Assembly: GCA_038128265.1 (NCBI GenBank)
Contig: JAYPJE010000031.1
Span: 1-49,971 of the forward strand
Direction of reading: 5' to 3'
Length of the DNA: 49,971 bases
DNA from: Gemmatimonadota bacterium
Lineage (GTDB): Bacteria; Latescibacterota; UBA2968; UBA8231
Part shown: positions 6,074-23,012 of the stretch, in pieces
Position numbering within the stretch: position 1 is the first letter of the stretch
Layout of the letters: the number at the start of each line of letters is the position of its first letter
Position numbers and translations under genes: made by a program
Notes under the pieces: model-generated
Databases searched by the model: none
What the model was told of the DNA's origin: nothing
Seen by the model: the letters and a program-made list of their open reading frames with translations, nothing else

Positions 6074-6961
6074 TTATAAGCTCGTGCGAGTTATTGAGTC
6101 GACGGTGTCGCGCAGCTGTTTGGGGTCGATGGGCTTTTCGACGAATGCGTTGAAGTTGTAGTTGCGCAGCGAGTCGATGTCGAGCGCACCCGACGTGGCG
6201 ACAATGGGCAGGTCGGGGTAGAGCGTGCGCAAATTCATCAAGAGCGTGCATCCGTCCATCTGCGGCATGCGAATATCGGTTATGACCAGGTCGAGCGCCC
6301 GCGCACTCATGATATCGAGCGCTTCGCTGCCGCCGCTGGCCTCGTAGACTTCGCAGTGTGCGAGAATTTGCCTGACCAGCCAGCGGCATTCGGGCTCGTC
6401 GTCGACGACCAGAACCTTGGGCAGTTCCACCGCTTGCACCGACTGCAGCTGTGCGGTTACTTCGCGCAGCTGCTCCTCCAACAGTTCGATTCGATCCCTA
6501 AGGTGCTGTTGCTGTTCTGTTTCGCCCTGGCGATTGCGCTGCTGGCGCTGGCGAGTGAGGATCTGCGTCATATTGCGGTATATGGCCAACTGGGCGTCTC
6601 TGTCGCTGTCGAGGACGTCGAGAAAGAGCTGGCGCGCGATGGATAGTATGTGGCAGGTGCCCAGCGTCTGCACGTCGGTTGAGAACGTCTGGTCGGACAG
6701 AATTTCTACACCGCCGATGAGGGCAAATGCGCGCAGGCTGTCCGCCTCTGCTGCGTCGGAGCGCCGCCGCGAGCATTCCCCCGAGCAGAGAATCAGCAGC
6801 TCAGTAGGCGAATCGCCGGCCGAACACAGCACCTGCCCCGGCTCCTGGATGCGGTGTTCGCTTACGGCCAGCAGCGCGCGCAGGGCGTTGGCTGAAACGC
6901 CGTCAAAGAGATCGATTCTGCCGATTACCTGTACGAGTACGTCGCTGGGTGCTTTGGACAT
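6074..6961 (-). CDS. Signalling protein: cyclic-nucleotide-binding-like domain, coiled coil and C-terminal receiver domain
   Basis: N-terminal cNMP-like pattern (IDLFDGVS...PGQVLCSAGD); Q/E/R-rich linker; receiver motifs VLVVDDE, ITDIRMP, ATSG, KP; start at MSKAP assumed. Confidence 0.8.
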   Translation of the reverse strand: MSKAPSDVLVQVIGRIDLFDGVSANALRALLAVSEHRIQEPGQVLCSAGDSPTELLILCSGECSRRRSDAAEADSLRAFALIGGVEILSDQTFSTDVQTLGTCHILSIARQLFLDVLDSDRDAQLAIYRNMTQILTRQRQQRNRQGETEQQQHLRDRIELLEEQLREVTAQLQSVQAVELPKVLVVDDEPECRWLVRQILAHCEVYEASGGSEALDIMSARALDLVITDIRMPQMDGCTLLMNLRTLYPDLPIVATSGALDIDSLRNYNFNAFVEKPIDPKQLRDTVDSITRTSL

Positions 6962-7061
6962 AGGGTTCTGCAGTGCGTTTTTGTAGTGGACGTACACAAA
7001 TATAAGTAAACCCGAAGATCTGTCAGCCGTGCCGATTACCGTGCGATAGTTGCCCAGCTAT

Positions 7062-8450
7062 CTAAGCGAACCAATAGGAAAACAGGTTGGCGCGCTTCAT
7101 GCGAAAGCGCAGGCGCACCGCATGTCCGCGCAGCGCCGCTAGCGGTCGATCAAAGCGCAGTGCCGTCTCCGTGCGGTCTTTTACCATCGGCAGGGACGTA
7201 TAGCCGGGCAGCGGTGATCCTACATCATCGGTCACTTCCACTTGGATATAGCCGCGGCTGTCGGCGTTGACGCAGAGCTGGTCGCCTTCCACGCTCAGCG
7301 GCTTGGTCAGCAGCGAGCCTTCCGCATCGCCTGCCTCTACAGACACAAAGCCGTCGCGGCGCAGCGTCGCCAGTCCTATGGCCGAAGCGTGGGTGCGCTC
7401 TACGCGCGCGAATTTTCGGCCGGTGTGCGGGCCCTGCACGCCGCCGTAGTAGAGATATATTTGGTCGTCGACGGTGATGAACTGTTGGCTGATACGGACC
7501 ATGCCATCTTCCCACGAGCCGCGTTCGCCCAGGCAGAGAAAGGTCTGCCGGTCGAGCACGCGCTGCCAGTGAATGCCGTCGCGACTGCAGGCCAGCGAAG
7601 TGTCGATACAGCCGTCGACGCCCTCGCGGTAGACCCACACCATGCCGATGTAGATACCCTCATAAATGCTGAGTGGCATGCCGTAGAACTGTGTGCCCTC
7701 TTCGTCCCACTCATCGGCAGCAAAAACCGTATGCGGCTGGTCAAAGTGCACGCCGTCGCGACTCTCGGAGCGGGCGATGCGGCGTCCTCCCGATCCCATG
7801 CGTCCAAAGGCTACGTAGGCGGCGAGGCGCTCGTCCCAAACGAGCGACTGCGTCGTATCGCTGCCCAGGGCGATGACCGGATTTTCCTCGCAGTTTTGCC
7901 AGTGAATGCCGTCTGGCGAAAAGGACATCCACATGCCGTCGCCGTCGCCCTGTCCCCAGATTAGGCGCCCCTGGTGCTCTACAAAGGTGTCCGTGCCGCC
8001 GTGTTCCCAGTAGAAGGCTTTGTAGCGCCGCGCTGGATCGGCGTCGTGCTCGTCGTAGAGCAGAGCAAAGCCCTCGCAGTTGCTGCGTCCTACATCTATT
8101 AAATTATTGGCCGTCGAGCCGGCAAAGTCGACCTGGTTTAGCGTCGGTTTGTCCCAGTGCACTCCGTCGCGCGATTCGGCGTAGCCCAACAGCGTGCAGT
8201 TGCCCAACGCGCGTCGGCCGCGAATCTGCACGAAGCCGTCGGCCTGTGGTCCGGTCAGGTACCACATTCTGAACAGCCCATCGCCCGGGTCGCGCAGCGC
8301 CGTTCCATAGAGCGAGGCAAAGCGCTCCCACGGGTGCTCGCCCTGAAGCACGGGGTTGTTCGGATGGCGGTGCGGGGCGTGCATGCGGCGGTGTAGGTGC
8401 TCCATGCGCGTTACGTCATGGAGGTCGAGAAAGAGGTGTCTATAGCCCAT
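7062..8450 (-). CDS. Putative five-bladed beta-propeller glycoside hydrolase-like protein (GH32/43/130 superfamily-like)
   Basis: Repeated S.DG.HW/F boxes (SRDGVHW, SPDGIHW, SRDGVHF, SRDGIHW), NPVL/NPVI, LRRDGFVS and a C-terminal beta-sandwich ending LFSYWF. Confidence 0.6.
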   Translation of the reverse strand: MGYRHLFLDLHDVTRMEHLHRRMHAPHRHPNNPVLQGEHPWERFASLYGTALRDPGDGLFRMWYLTGPQADGFVQIRGRRALGNCTLLGYAESRDGVHWDKPTLNQVDFAGSTANNLIDVGRSNCEGFALLYDEHDADPARRYKAFYWEHGGTDTFVEHQGRLIWGQGDGDGMWMSFSPDGIHWQNCEENPVIALGSDTTQSLVWDERLAAYVAFGRMGSGGRRIARSESRDGVHFDQPHTVFAADEWDEEGTQFYGMPLSIYEGIYIGMVWVYREGVDGCIDTSLACSRDGIHWQRVLDRQTFLCLGERGSWEDGMVRISQQFITVDDQIYLYYGGVQGPHTGRKFARVERTHASAIGLATLRRDGFVSVEAGDAEGSLLTKPLSVEGDQLCVNADSRGYIQVEVTDDVGSPLPGYTSLPMVKDRTETALRFDRPLAALRGHAVRLRFRMKRANLFSYWFA

Positions 8451-8558: not shown

Positions 8559-10628
8559 TTAAAGGACGTACTTCTCCAATAGGCGACGGTAAATAGCCGC
8601 GAAGTCGGCGCGCCCGTTGTCCTTATTGTAAAAGTAGCAGAATGGGTTGGGATTCAGCTCTAGGATGCGCAGTCCGTCAGCGCCGTTGATTAAATCGACG
8701 GCGTAAAAGCCCAAATGGACTGCGGGTGCAATGGCGGCGACCAGTGCGCGCATGGACTCCAGTACGGGCCCCTCGGCAACGCGGACGGCGTGCCCGTCGT
8801 CTTGGTGGAGCGGGTTGAGGTCGGTGCCGCTGCGCGCATCGCTCTCCTTGCCGTAGGCCAAGAGCAGTTCGCCCTCTGTTGCCACGGCGCGGAACTCAGC
8901 GCCGGGGACGTATTCCTGTATTAGAATGATATTGTCGAGGTAGGTGCTGTTTTCAAAGAGGTGGTGCAGGCGGTGCTCCAGCGCTTCCGCGCCGTGTTCA
9001 AGGAATACGCCCTGGGCTAGCGAACTCCGGTATTTTTTAACGACCAAGGGGAAGGTAAAGTGTTGACCTATATCATCGACGATATCGCGGATCGTATGAT
9101 GCGTTTTGTAGCGATCAAAGCGCGGGTCGGCCAGCGGGTTAAAGACCTGCTGCGTGTGCGGAATAGGTAGACCAACGCGCGCAAAAATTTCGTGCTGGAA
9201 TGCTTTGTCCTCTGCGATACGCGCTCCCATATAGTCGTTGAACGGGTGCTTGTTGCGCCAAAAGTACAGCGGTCGCTCGCGGTGGGTTAGGCGCATGAGG
9301 GAGCCTTCATCGCTGTAGGGCTCGCACGGCAGGCCCAACTGTTCGCAGGCCATTTTGAGGCATTCCAGGTTTTCCAGCGCCATGTCTTCGGTGATGCCGT
9401 CGCGCTCACAGGGCAGGTCAAAGAATTCGCGTGCACGTGCGACGAGGAAGAGCGATCCGGTGACGCATAGCGCGCCCCGTTCTCCGGCTAGCTGGCGACC
9501 GCGGTGCAGCGCTGCCGAAAAAGACGGCACGACTTCGGCCGTTGTGCCGTTGGGCACGTGCTGCGCCAACGCGGCAGCCGGCACCGCTTTGGGATGGTCG
9601 GAAGCAGTGAGCACGATGCGATCGGCTAGCGGTGCCAGCGCGCGCAAAAACGCACCCGCCTCGTGCCCTGAGCCCATGCCGATGACCAGCGTCCAACGCG
9701 CGCGGAGGGCGCGCAGGGAATCGGCTAATGCTCCAGCAGCCTGCGGGTTGTGAGCTCCGTCTAGCATGATTAAAGGCGTTGTGCTGGCCCGTTCAAAGCG
9801 CCCTGGCCACGCGTGCTCTGCCACGGTGCGCTCGGCGCTTGCTTGCGATGGTGCCAACCCCATGCCGCGTGCCGCCGCCAGGGCGAGCTCGGCGTTTTCT
9901 CCGTAGTACTGAGGACGCTCTGGCACGGTGCGAACCGGAGCCGTATGCAGCGCGATTGCGCGTTCGGCGCAGGTGCGTTGGAGCAGCTGCATTACTTCGG
10001 GGTCCTGGGCTATTGTTGTATACAGCGCGCGCCCGCTGCGCGCTATATGCACTTTATCGGCGGCGATTTGCTCTAGGGTGTCGCCCAAGATGCCAACGTG
10101 GTCTAAGCCGATCCGCGTCAGCACGGCGGCGTCGGCATCCCAGGCGTTGGTTGCGTCGTAGCGCCCCCCCAGACCGACCTCAAATACGGCCCATTCGCAG
10201 CGCGCCGCCGCAAAAAAGTGCGCAGCTAGCGCTGTCAGCGCTTCAAATTTGCTGAATGCGCCGAGCCCTTCGCGCTCAAAGTCGCGCGTGGTATCGTACA
10301 AGTTACCTACGGCGGCAGCCCACAGGTCTTTGCTCAAAATCTCGCCGTTGACGCGGATGCGCTCGCGCTGCGTATGTAGGTGAGGTGAGGTGTAGAGTCC
10401 TACGCACAGGTCCGACTGCTGGACGAGCGCGGCCAGTAGACTCGACGCTGTGCCCTTGCCATTGGTGCCCCCTACGATGAGCGTGCGGAAGGAATGCTGC
10501 GGGTTGCCTAAACGCGCCAAGAGCGCGCGCATGCGGGGCAGGTAGTCTTCCAAGGGGCCGCTAGGCTGTTGTCCCGTCTCCCAGTCGGGCAGCGTATCGA
10601 GGAAGCGCTTGGCGCGAAAATAATCCAT
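8559..10628 (-). CDS. folC: Folylpolyglutamate synthase/dihydrofolate synthase fused to a C-terminal RimK-like ATP-grasp domain
   Basis: GTNGKG, YTSPHL, ERIRVNG, EVGLGGRYDATN, IGLDH, WPGRFE, DGAHNP, TGSLFLV; then in the same frame EDK, FPLVVKK, IQEYVPGAEFR, AVDLI and ILELNPNP (ATP-grasp). Confidence 0.88.
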   Translation of the reverse strand: MDYFRAKRFLDTLPDWETGQQPSGPLEDYLPRMRALLARLGNPQHSFRTLIVGGTNGKGTASSLLAALVQQSDLCVGLYTSPHLHTQRERIRVNGEILSKDLWAAAVGNLYDTTRDFEREGLGAFSKFEALTALAAHFFAAARCEWAVFEVGLGGRYDATNAWDADAAVLTRIGLDHVGILGDTLEQIAADKVHIARSGRALYTTIAQDPEVMQLLQRTCAERAIALHTAPVRTVPERPQYYGENAELALAAARGMGLAPSQASAERTVAEHAWPGRFERASTTPLIMLDGAHNPQAAGALADSLRALRARWTLVIGMGSGHEAGAFLRALAPLADRIVLTASDHPKAVPAAALAQHVPNGTTAEVVPSFSAALHRGRQLAGERGALCVTGSLFLVARAREFFDLPCERDGITEDMALENLECLKMACEQLGLPCEPYSDEGSLMRLTHRERPLYFWRNKHPFNDYMGARIAEDKAFQHEIFARVGLPIPHTQQVFNPLADPRFDRYKTHHTIRDIVDDIGQHFTFPLVVKKYRSSLAQGVFLEHGAEALEHRLHHLFENSTYLDNIILIQEYVPGAEFRAVATEGELLLAYGKESDARSGTDLNPLHQDDGHAVRVAEGPVLESMRALVAAIAPAVHLGFYAVDLINGADGLRILELNPNPFCYFYNKDNGRADFAAIYRRLLEKYVL

Positions 10629-10711: not shown

Positions 10712-11767
10712 TCATCCGCCGCGCGTATGCATCTCTCTGTGCGGATCTTCGCGCAGGTCTTCTATGGCAAAGAGCGCGCCGCGCGCAGGATCTTCCAGGC
10801 GGTGTTCGGCGCCGCGATCTTGACGGCCGTTCCACGTCGCGCGCACGTAGTCGATTAGTGCATCGCGCTGTTCCGGTGCACGCAGATAGGTGCGCAGGTC
10901 GTGGCCTTCGCCGGCGTATAGGCACAGATACCACATGCCGTCGGCGGTCAGGCGGCTGCGATCGCACGTGCCGCAAAACGGTTCGCTGACCGAAGCGATA
11001 ATGCCGAAGCGCGTGCCGTCTTGCAGTTGGAACCTCGCCGCCGGTGCCGCCCCCTGTGGGCCATCGGCTGCGATCGGGCCGTAGTGCTGCTCTAGCAGAG
11101 CGAGTATATCGCGCCGAGTAACGACTTCGCCCTGCGACCAGTGGGTGGCTCCCCCTACATCCATGTATTCAATAAAGCGAACCTCAGCGCCGACGCGCTT
11201 GCCGTATTCGATCAGGTCGACGATTTCGTCGTCGTTGAAACCGCGCATTACAACGGTGTTGATCTTTAGCGCGTCGAATCCCGCACCAGACGCCGCGTCG
11301 ATGCCCGAGAGCACGGACGCCAGCGCGTCGCGTCGCGTCAATTGCTCTAGGCGTTCCCTCCGCAGCGAATCTAAGCTGACGGTGATGCGCTGCAGTCCGG
11401 CACGACGCAGGGCCTCGGCGCGCTGGGCCAACTGCGTGCCGTTGGTCGTTAGGGCTAGGTCGCCAATAGATGGCATATCGGCTATGCGCGCGACGAGTTC
11501 TTCTACATGCGGGCGCAGTAAGGGTTCGCCGCCCGTGATGCGCACGCGATCGACACCGAGTTCGGCAAATGTGCTGACTGCTCTCTCAATCTCGTCAAAG
11601 CTGAGTATGTCGGCCTTGGGCAACCAGGCGTAGTGCTCTTCGGGCATGCAGTAGCGGCAGCGCAGATCGCAGCGATCAATAACGGATACGCGCAGGCTGC
11701 GCATTGGGCGCTGTAGGCGATCGATGGAGGCGTTTTCCAAAGCAGTATGAATTCTGGCGGCAACCAC
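10712..11767 (-). CDS. moaA: GTP 3',8-cyclase MoaA (radical SAM)
   Basis: LRVSVIDRCDLRCRYCMP, RITGGEPLLR, TTNG, FIEYM, FCGTCDRSRLTADG..LCL and C-terminal GG; exact start uncertain. Confidence 0.95.
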   Translation of the reverse strand: MVAARIHTALENASIDRLQRPMRSLRVSVIDRCDLRCRYCMPEEHYAWLPKADILSFDEIERAVSTFAELGVDRVRITGGEPLLRPHVEELVARIADMPSIGDLALTTNGTQLAQRAEALRRAGLQRITVSLDSLRRERLEQLTRRDALASVLSGIDAASGAGFDALKINTVVMRGFNDDEIVDLIEYGKRVGAEVRFIEYMDVGGATHWSQGEVVTRRDILALLEQHYGPIAADGPQGAAPAARFQLQDGTRFGIIASVSEPFCGTCDRSRLTADGMWYLCLYAGEGHDLRTYLRAPEQRDALIDYVRATWNGRQDRGAEHRLEDPARGALFAIEDLREDPHREMHTRGG

Positions 11768-21656: not shown

Positions 21657-23012
21657 ATGCGTGAGGCTATGCGCGCTAAAACGGGTGAGCTACACGTTCA
21701 CATCGGTGGGTGTTTAACGGCAGAAGATCTGTTTGAGTTGGGGCGCGATGCGTTTGAGCAGATCGACTGGACGCTCTTTGTAGACAGCTTTGAGAAAGCC
21801 TACGGTGAGCGGCCGGATCCCGCTGCGATCTATCGCCGTGGTCTTGACGGCAGCGGCGCTGACGCGCTGCGTCCCTACTGCGTATACGGCGCAGAAGAAG
21901 GCGGTGACTTTGCGCGTTTTCAAGCGAAGTTCAATTTCAGCATCTGCGTATTTCGCCACTGGTGGCACGTTCTTTCCCGCGAAGGAGAAGTGCTGACGCG
22001 GATTTTTGAACAGCACCGACGCGAGGGCGTGCGCTACGTAGAATACCGAGCGATGGCGCCCTTTGGCGCAGAAAACCCCGAGGGATTTATTGATTTCCAT
22101 GCGACGATGGCTCATGCCATAGGCAAGGCGTGCGGTGACGGCTTTACGGCGCGTTACCTGATTAGCTTGCCGCGCTGGCAGCCGCTGGAATCGTACGCGC
22201 TGGTGCGTCGATTGCTAGCCGAACGCGCCGATTTGCAGGAAGTCGTCGTCGGGCTCGATCTCTGCTATGTTGAAGAGGGCTATCCCCCGGAGTCGACGCG
22301 GTCCTTTTTTCGCCAACTGCACGATGACAATGCCGCACAGCCGGCCTACCCGCTCGAAGTCGCCTATCACGTTGGCGAAGTGTTTTTTGATAAATCGCTG
22401 GAGAGCGCCGTGCGCTGGTGCCACGAGGCGGCCGAGCTAGGAGCCGCACGCCTGGGTCACTGCACCGCGCTCGGATTGGACCCGGGCAGCGCGGTGGCGC
22501 GTCAGCCCGCGGCGCATACGAGCGAAAGGGCATCCGAGCGCGTGGCGCAGATTGACTACGATCTGCGCTATCTCGACGCGCTGCGCGCCTATGGCGTCGC
22601 CGTCGACGGCGATCGGTTAAGAGCCGAACGGAGTGCGCTGGCTGCGCGTCCGGAGCAAATGCATTGCCGTCCCTATGCGCAGGAGCGCTTGGAGGACGTG
22701 CGCCTGCGCCAATCCTTCGTACTCGACCAACTGGCCGAACGGGCGGTTGTCGTCGAAACCTGCCCCACCTCCAATCTGCGCATTGGCGCCGTGCCTTCAG
22801 CCGATGTACATCCGGTGCAGCGCTTTCTCCAGTCTCGCGTGCCGCTGGTGATAGGTGCCGACGATCCCGGCGTCTTTGGCTGCACGTTGGGAAGCGAGGT
22901 CGACTGGGTGCTCGAGTATGGGGGCCTGGAACGGGAAGCGCTGGATGCGCGCCTGGGCGACCCGCTGCGCCATCGCTTTGGCAGGCGTGGCCGAACCCAA
23001 TCGCCGGATTAG
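21657..23012 (+). CDS. Adenosine deaminase-family metallohydrolase with a large insertion
   Basis: ELHVHIGG, YVEYR, YHVGE, RLGH, ETCPTSN and GADDPGVF motifs. Confidence 0.85.
   Translation: MREAMRAKTGELHVHIGGCLTAEDLFELGRDAFEQIDWTLFVDSFEKAYGERPDPAAIYRRGLDGSGADALRPYCVYGAEEGGDFARFQAKFNFSICVFRHWWHVLSREGEVLTRIFEQHRREGVRYVEYRAMAPFGAENPEGFIDFHATMAHAIGKACGDGFTARYLISLPRWQPLESYALVRRLLAERADLQEVVVGLDLCYVEEGYPPESTRSFFRQLHDDNAAQPAYPLEVAYHVGEVFFDKSLESAVRWCHEAAELGAARLGHCTALGLDPGSAVARQPAAHTSERASERVAQIDYDLRYLDALRAYGVAVDGDRLRAERSALAARPEQMHCRPYAQERLEDVRLRQSFVLDQLAERAVVVETCPTSNLRIGAVPSADVHPVQRFLQSRVPLVIGADDPGVFGCTLGSEVDWVLEYGGLEREALDARLGDPLRHRFGRRGRTQSPD

Follow-up and report, generated by a model that had tools for sequence, protein, structure and literature searches.

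A FolC protein fused to an ATP-grasp ligase domain in Latescibacterota and its possible role on the folate tail

The fused gene and its frame

The window analyzed in this work is the whole stretch of 49,971 nucleotides of contig JAYPJE010000031.1 (assembly GCA_038128265.1, a Gemmatimonadota bacterium placed by GTDB in Latescibacterota; its genome is referred to as G000). It contains on the minus strand a gene in which a FolC enzyme continues into an ATP-grasp domain. The fused domain may extend or modify the folate tail alongside FolC, a reading to which a probability of about 45% is assigned. The gene is composed of the following parts:

8559-10628, minus strand: fused gene of 689 aa, FolC (Mur-ligase fold) followed by the ATP-grasp domain; AlphaFold2 model with a mean predicted local distance difference test score (pLDDT) of 86.6 and a predicted template modeling score of 0.72
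9411-10628, minus strand: FolC domain, residues 1-406, the sole FolC of the window's genome
10449-10469, minus strand: P-loop GTNGKGT, residues 54-60
10053-10058, minus strand: D191-K192; K192 is invariant and D191 stands in place of the usual Glu
9663-9668, minus strand: G321-H322, in place of D-K in the DKD motif of FolC
9393-9410, minus strand: short linker, residues ~407-412, of low model confidence (pLDDT <50 at residues 411-416) and bridged by contigs
8562-9392, minus strand: ATP-grasp domain, residues 413-689 (277 aa), an unnamed family of the RimK/LysX/ArgX fold group
9204-9209, minus strand: D474-K475, aligned to D99-K100 of RimK
8889-8897, minus strand: E578-F-R580, aligned to D187-I-R189 of RimK (acceptor-carboxylate site)
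8652-8696, minus strand: D645 and E657-L-N659, aligned to D248, E260 and N262 of RimK

As the initial annotation had proposed, FolC runs into the ATP-grasp domain without a stop: the 689-aa frame is a single open reading frame (ORF) with zero internal stops. Its residues 30-402 score 285.6 bits (288.6 for the FolC domain) with the folC model TIGR01499 (cut-off 162.65). The Pfam RimK domain matches residues 499-670 with 32.3 bits (cut-off 21). The junction at ~9400 is bridged by contigs in three of the four runs examined, which belong to three studies and one of which is possibly the source sample, with zero insertions or deletions; hence the fusion is no assembly error. The metagenomes listed as carrying it are mainly estuary and marine. 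The 120 best homologues listed all cover the query at full length (100%) with identities of 52-99%, and the few among them that are named by source bear the labels Latescibacterota or Gemmatimonadetes.

Both halves are under purifying selection. In comparison with the closest relative, the nonsynonymous and synonymous rates (dN/dS) are 0.048/0.78 for the ATP-grasp half, and 0.057/0.68 and 0.099/0.71 for the two halves of FolC, the value of the ATP-grasp half resembling that of the FolC N-domain. The scan for promoters and terminators gave a result at chance level.

Distribution within the phylum

Of 168 genomes of the phylum, 123 match the profile of the ATP-grasp half, each with a single copy. 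In detail, the carriers belong to three families of one class (70/75, 31/31 and 21/22 genomes), with the addition of G000. The same profile found no match in the three genomes of the fourth family of the class, nor in the 36 genomes of ten other families of the phylum. In 122 of the 123 carriers, the open frame around the match is 674 aa or longer; in the remaining one it stops at a contig edge. Of the six misses inside the carrier families, three lack any FolC match, and in the other three the FolC is cut by the end of a contig. The fused FolCs and the fused ATP-grasp domains each form a clade with strong support (99-100 in the Shimodaira-Hasegawa-like approximate likelihood ratio test, SH-aLRT), which indicates a single origin of the fusion.

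Plain FolC is present in the non-carrier genomes of the phylum. Of the 123 carriers, 120 have no FolC besides the fused gene, two have a plain FolC in addition, and one shows a second, equally scoring match. The fused gene is also the only FolC match over the cut-off in G000, where folP, folK, a FolB-like ORF adjoining folK, and folA were found. The FolC half is therefore very probably the housekeeping FolC. As a separate observation, a genome of the sister family without the fusion (G030; e.g., locus L242) has six matches to dihydrofolate reductase, some of them broken, versus one in each of the four carriers checked.

The FolC half

All of the structures ranked 1-17 by Foldseek for this half are FolC/FPGS. 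The ATP and metal site (P-loop, E150, D158, H177, K192, R277, and D290) is invariant in 107 of 107 fused sequences; K192 is presumably the carbamylated lysine of FolC. The C-terminal amino-acid pocket is also kept (H293 in 107, Arg or Lys at residue 347 in 80 and 26, respectively, and S392 in 106 sequences).

Two positions are altered. The DKD motif reads GHD, with His in 107 of 107 fused sequences versus Lys in all 32 locus-derived and in 97 of 102 other plain FolCs. In this count, 14 of the 121 fused sequences, all of them G-H, were dropped by the cutting pattern, together with six short plain ones. Asp precedes K192 in 103/107 fused sequences, where plain FolCs have Glu (31/32 and 96/102). 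The EKAG motif of the plain type reads DK(L/V)H in the fused type. The Lys of DKD is taken here to bind free glutamate as R377 of human FPGS, a role for which no confirming paper was found. The FolC is complete, as initially annotated, but its DKD motif carries a fixed Lys-to-His change. In a quick tree, the fused FolCs form one long-stemmed clade apart from the plain FolC of the sister family.

Plain FolCs of the His type (P0334, P0347, P0359, P0391, and P0399) are placed on at least two further branches, and all five share with the fused type the next motif H-P-[RK]-A. One of the five is named Kouleothrix aurantiaca, and some His-type FolCs belong to Chloroflexota.

According to an earlier study, no motif separates the monofunctional from the bifunctional dihydrofolate synthase/folylpolyglutamate synthase (DHFS/FPGS) enzymes (PMC1971073). 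An Arg and a Ser are used in a modeled Glu site (PMC10861534), which may correspond to K/R347 and S392, the mapping being ours.

The ATP-grasp half

Modeled alone, this half reaches a pLDDT of 90.6. The best structural matches with VIA-align are ArgX (Z 21.7, root mean square deviation 2.8, 243 residues aligned), LysX/ArgX (Z 21.3), and RimK (Z 19.5), whereas Foldseek ranks RimK (5zct) first. ArgX/LysX and RimK activate different carboxylates. All motifs named by the initial annotation are present, that is, D474-K475, P527-LVV-K531, Q571-EYV, E578-F-R580, D645, and E657-L-N659. Residues K100, K141, D187, R189, D248, E260, and N262 of RimK correspond to K475, K531, E578, R580, D645, E657, and N659, and these seven are invariant in 255 of 255 sequences (121 fused, 13 near, and 121 of the main stand-alone group). 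D248, E260, and N262 of RimK are presumably metal and phosphate ligands. R189 is described as its acceptor-carboxylate site (PMC10375531), and both N262 and R189 contact bound polyglutamate (PMC10092738).

The description as RimK-like holds for the fold but not for family membership, the score with the RimK family model TIGR00768 being 50.5 bits against a cut-off of 143.4. The donor-glutamate site of RimK (R8/R64) lies in the N-terminal subdomain, and the alignments to RimK start only at its residue 85-87. In G000, the true RimK is a separate protein that shares 24% identity with the ATP-grasp half. Judged from its sequence, the half is apparently an active ligase and belongs to an unnamed family; neither its donor nor its linkage can be read at this level. 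Two cysteines, C423 (9360-9362) and C664 (8637-8639), are invariant in 121 of 121 fused sequences and largely conserved in the closest clade of stand-alone proteins.

Stand-alone relatives and the pairing with folC

The profile search for the ATP-grasp half gave 156 representatives at E <1e-30, mainly single-domain proteins of ~275 aa, and the genome scan gave 360 relatives, the best 80 of which are chiefly from Nostoc and other cyanobacteria, with some Patescibacteria and one Caldithrix. The distribution of the stand-alone family is patchy: it is found in 15/251 cyanobacterial, 10/401 Patescibacteria, and 1/81 Calditrichota genomes, counting in each case the carrier genome used as center (in Calditrichota, that genome alone). 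In the ATP-grasp tree, the fused domain is a clade (99) and sister to a small stand-alone group (P0157-P0173; 94). A metagenome scan for this nearest clade gave nine loci, eight from DNA of the carrier type and one fragment. The search of plasmids for the stand-alone gene returned zero matches.

The contexts of the stand-alone genes were examined in 107 loci (a few genomes are present twice), grouped into 23 neighborhood contexts. In two of the 23, folC lies directly downstream on the same strand. In the case of Caldithrix, the stand-alone gene is upstream of the only FolC found in the genome, ~510 bp apart across a run of N. In the case of cyanobacteria, an extra folC-like gene begins 4 bp past the ATP-grasp stop in one genome (G880), and two extra folC-like genes are located downstream in another (G952), the first of which overlaps the ATP-grasp gene. 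A housekeeping folC is retained elsewhere in each of the two genomes. In one clostridial folC locus that was also inspected, no neighboring ORF could be made out by eye as an ATP-grasp gene. The Caldithrix, cyanobacterial, and fused ATP-grasp genes branch separately in the tree, and therefore three associations with folC are counted.

The FolCs adjacent to stand-alone genes share the changes of the fused type in part, with E-to-D in 4/4 and K-to-H in 2/4 (a cyanobacterial partner has both), and the unlinked FolCs checked have E and K in 7/7. The partner FolCs group loosely in the tree, where a long-branch warning applies. The extra folC-like type occurs in 2 of 89 genomes of that cyanobacterial family, both of them carriers, and two other carriers of the same family have no folC neighbor. 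A search for the P0430 type gave 0 of 301 genomes, in a set that contained no positive genome. The partner FolC P0428 is publicly recorded as a protein of Rippkaea orientalis PCC 8801, so a cultured host for the unfused pair may be at hand.

Two further observations concern these contexts. The cyanobacterial modules of ATP-grasp and folC-like genes (L227:6288-9864 in G952 and L214:4778-6935 in G880) stand behind a fatty-acid desaturase gene and possibly serve a separate product. In two Parcubacteria without FolC (L072:555-6752 and L114:5490-12033), the stand-alone gene comes after nusG-rplK, and a gene for serine hydroxymethyltransferase (SHMT) and, by their look, genes for a ThyX-type protein and a dCTP deaminase are found within 6 kb. 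SHMT, which would agree with a use of folate, is present in 5/5 FolC-less Patescibacteria carriers and also in 14/14 controls, none of which is a non-carrier, and it was given zero weight.

A proposed role on the folate tail

In the favored reading, the FolC half would attach the first glutamate to dihydropteroate, and the ATP-grasp half would then use ATP to activate a carboxylate of the glutamyl tail and lengthen the tail by further amino acids, most likely glutamate. Judging from the ATP-grasp superfamily, the activated tail would be an acyl-phosphate. The altered FolC would thus pass part of the tail building to its ATP-grasp partner. Folate as the acceptor is suggested by the pairing with folC and by the analogy to cofactor-tail ligases of the MptN/CofF/MyfB type. 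By comparison with RimK and MptN, an alpha linkage is somewhat favored over a gamma one. MptN and MyfB extend the cofactor tails of one-carbon carriers (PMC8141765), and a chlamydial CofE homologue offers a precedent for a non-FolC substitute in folate glutamylation (PMC1971073).

The initial annotation had suggested a non-standard folate tail. A role on the tail gains independent support, because stand-alone relatives are located directly upstream of folC in two other lineages. The absence of markers for the other candidate cofactors also supports it: CofE and Mch were not found in 5/5 genomes (one being G000, 84% complete), and the controls were detected in three archaea. These absences argue against F420 or methanopterin as the acceptor. 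The mixed gamma/alpha tail in that suggestion is conjectural: the best structural matches are ArgX/LysX together with RimK, and the arginine belt of RimK is not conserved.

Several points weigh against the proposed role. The belt residues R96/R98/R102 of RimK are replaced by I471/E473/F477, and its ADP loop F210-R211-S212-N213 by D603-L604-N605-P606; since the belt arginines and the RSN loop are replaced (for their roles, see PMC10375531 and PMC10092738), glutamate specificity cannot be carried over from RimK. In the FolC half, His at the DKD motif is also found in 5 of 102 plain FolCs, of undocumented context, and is not strictly defining. An unfused FolC of 426 aa (P0318), sister to the fused clade, has both altered residues, so the GHD and DK changes may predate the fusion. 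With regard to the stand-alone genes, 21 of the 23 contexts are without folC within 1.5 kb, and the family does not require FolC, because a FolC match is absent in 11 of 12 Patescibacteria carriers (incomplete genomes). The partner FolC of Caldithrix retains the Lys. A single clade of the fused and the cyanobacterial His-type FolCs is not rejected by the approximately unbiased test (p-AU 0.186), and the shared residues are thus a signature rather than proven convergence. Lastly, the cyanobacterial partners are extra divergent FolC paralogues, perhaps not acting on folate.

P0318 itself may represent either the state before the fusion or a loss of the fusion.

In the textbook account, FolC alone makes the folate tail, as gamma-polyglutamate. 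If the favored reading is true, an ATP-grasp enzyme acting on folate would be a new step in a core vitamin pathway, parallel to the way in which ATP-grasp enzymes are known to extend the tails of methanopterin, F420, and methylofuran. Through the fusion, a candidate enzyme family can be named and the question of the folate tail becomes testable.

A broader form of this reading is possible, if somewhat unlikely. According to it, the family would be a second, non-FolC folate-tail synthetase, which, fused to or beside a FolC with a rebuilt amino-acid pocket, would make alpha-linked or non-glutamate tails, and which would be the sole tailing enzyme for salvaged folate in the FolC-less Patescibacteria. 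If so, a gene and cultured carriers would be available for the chemistry of alpha-linked folylpolyglutamates.

Alternative explanations

The ATP-grasp half could instead be a passenger, joined once in the ancestor of the three families to an ordinary bifunctional DHFS/FPGS with a tolerated Lys-to-His change, and occupied with an unrelated job, for example, RimK-like tailing of a protein. The single origin of the fusion and the existence of His-type plain FolCs would agree with this, as would the stand-alone genes, most of which are without a folate neighbor and in FolC-less genomes, one context following nusG-rplK. In the same direction points rimO, which two carrier families have divergently upstream of the fusion (13 of 18 loci). 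On the contrary, a passenger would not be expected to meet folC in two further, phylogenetically separate pairings, for which a rough estimate of chance is ~1e-4 (for 2 of ~22 contexts, assuming ~3 neighbors per context and ~5000 genes per genome), nor to do so next to FolCs with the same rare changes; moreover, G000 has a true RimK of its own. On balance, this explanation is rather unlikely. If it holds, the fusion is a clean lineage marker and the domain an unannotated ligase family of modest interest.

A second alternative places the ATP-grasp half on the donor side, as Ddl serves MurF. It would join two amino acids, and FolC would then transfer the dipeptide, or an amino acid other than glutamate, onto pteroate or folate in a single step. 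The fold order is that of MurC-Ddl, and the fixed change from DK to GH affects the residue presumed to bind free glutamate, with the same His in the cyanobacterial partner. The Lys of DKD would have been lost since the alpha-carboxyl of the donor is no longer free. The donor route is held to be improbable: the other residues of the Glu pocket (H293, K/R347, and S392) are kept, and His is also found in plain FolCs. In addition, the enzyme as sole FolC still has to supply usable folate, and the scores with Ddl are far under the cut-off.

The initial annotation had also offered an amino-acid polymer. A free polymer or another non-folate product, made in the manner of cyanophycin synthetase (CphA) besides or instead of folate tailing, is held to be quite improbable, and no positive evidence for it emerged. 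The two folds are shared with CphA, the CphA models give weak matches (54 and 50 bits), cyanobacteria have extra folC paralogues with altered motifs, and free polyglutamate is an in vitro product of both RimK and MyfB (PMC8141765). However, the cut-offs of the models (850 and 877) are far from reached, the domains come in the opposite order, and the CphA models are ~180 residues longer than the protein; both sequence and fold clearly identify the Mur half as FolC, the only one of its genome.

An artefact of assembly or read-through, or a dead domain, is rejected as next to impossible: G000 is an incomplete genome (5% contamination at the completeness given above), but the bridging contigs, the 120 of 120 listed homologues that are fused, the long frames open across the carriers, and the purifying selection all stand against it.

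Genomic neighborhood of the fusion

The upstream neighbor of the fused gene is:

10712-11767, minus strand: moaA (TIGR02666, 362 bits), 83 bp upstream of the fused gene

The initial annotation had taken this gene, which it called a pterin gene, as a hint of function. Its position directly upstream is correct, but the hint is not supported, since the synteny is specific to one family: neighbor counts made by tblastn place moaA immediately upstream of the fusion in 17 of 18 loci from the window's family, and in the other two carrier families it has this position in 0 of 18. MoaA acts in molybdenum cofactor synthesis, and as a functional partner of the fusion it was rejected. In the 18 loci of the other two families, the genes divergently upstream include rimO (13), folA (11), and thyA (12). 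The linkage to folA and thyA fits the FolC half and is uninformative on the second domain.

Three other ORFs of the window were noted. Directly downstream of the fusion, a 462-aa ORF (7062-8450, minus strand) has no Pfam match and a weak score of 23.7 bits with a mannobiose phosphorylase model; it stands behind the fusion in 4 of 21 loci. The ORF at 6074-6997 (minus strand) has a cyclic nucleotide-binding (cNMP) domain and a response-regulator receiver domain joined by a glutamine-rich stretch. The 451-aa ORF at 21657-23012 (plus strand) has by eye the look of an amidohydrolase of the adenosine-deaminase family (LHVHIGG, HVGE, and GADDP).

Comparison with known systems

The literature search returned no description of a FolC-ATP-grasp fusion or of its ATP-grasp family; Iyer et al. 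2009 and Li et al. 2003 are outside that search and could bear on novelty. Both folds, the tailing of cofactors by ATP-grasp enzymes, and the same fold order in MurC-Ddl are already known, and alpha-linked folate tails are reported for Escherichia coli.

The fused protein resembles FolC (TIGR01499; PDB 1w78, 2vor, and 1o5z) in sequence score, fold, P-loop, E150, D158, H177, K192, DGAHNP, K/R347, and GS, and in being the sole copy within a genome that has the folate pathway. It differs by the 277-aa C-terminal ATP-grasp domain, GHD, DK(L/V)H, and the long stem branch; the FolC of Thermotoga maritima is ~25 residues longer than the fused one between two aligned blocks.

With RimK (TIGR00768; PDB 5zct and 4iwx) the ATP-grasp half shares the fold and the catalytic residues, whereas the family score is low, the belt arginines and the RSN loop are replaced, and the domain is fused to FolC. 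ArgX/LysX (PDB 3vpb and 5k2m), which act on the carrier protein LysW, are the closest in structure (Z 21.7 and 21.3, tied within 1), but the identity is 18-19% and the score 25.8 bits against a cut-off of 275.6. CofF is an ATP-grasp ligase that adds glutamate to a cofactor tail. The proposed likeness to MptN and MyfB (PMC8141765), and to CofF, is that of an ATP-grasp ligase extending the tail of a one-carbon carrier; the score with MptN is 19.8 bits versus 350, and the acceptor here would be folate.

The initial annotation had compared the protein with cyanophycin synthetase, in which the same two folds are found in one chain. In CphA, however, the order is N domain, ATP-grasp, and Mur, reversed here, and the score is 54.1 versus 850 bits. 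This comparison was incomplete, since MurC-Ddl of Chlamydia (NF011171) joins the Mur-ligase and ATP-grasp folds in one chain and in the same order (PMC4803751). It differs from the present protein in that the Mur half here is FolC and the ATP-grasp half is no Ddl, the fusion model scoring 17.9 versus 1015 bits and Ddl 16.8 versus 243.

As to activity, the titles of two papers by Ferone et al. 1986 in the Journal of Biological Chemistry reportedly concern the synthesis of alpha-linked folylpolyglutamates by an E. coli enzyme preparation. We know of no gene assigned to it, and no identity with the ATP-grasp family is claimed; the activity is the same as the one predicted by the favored reading.

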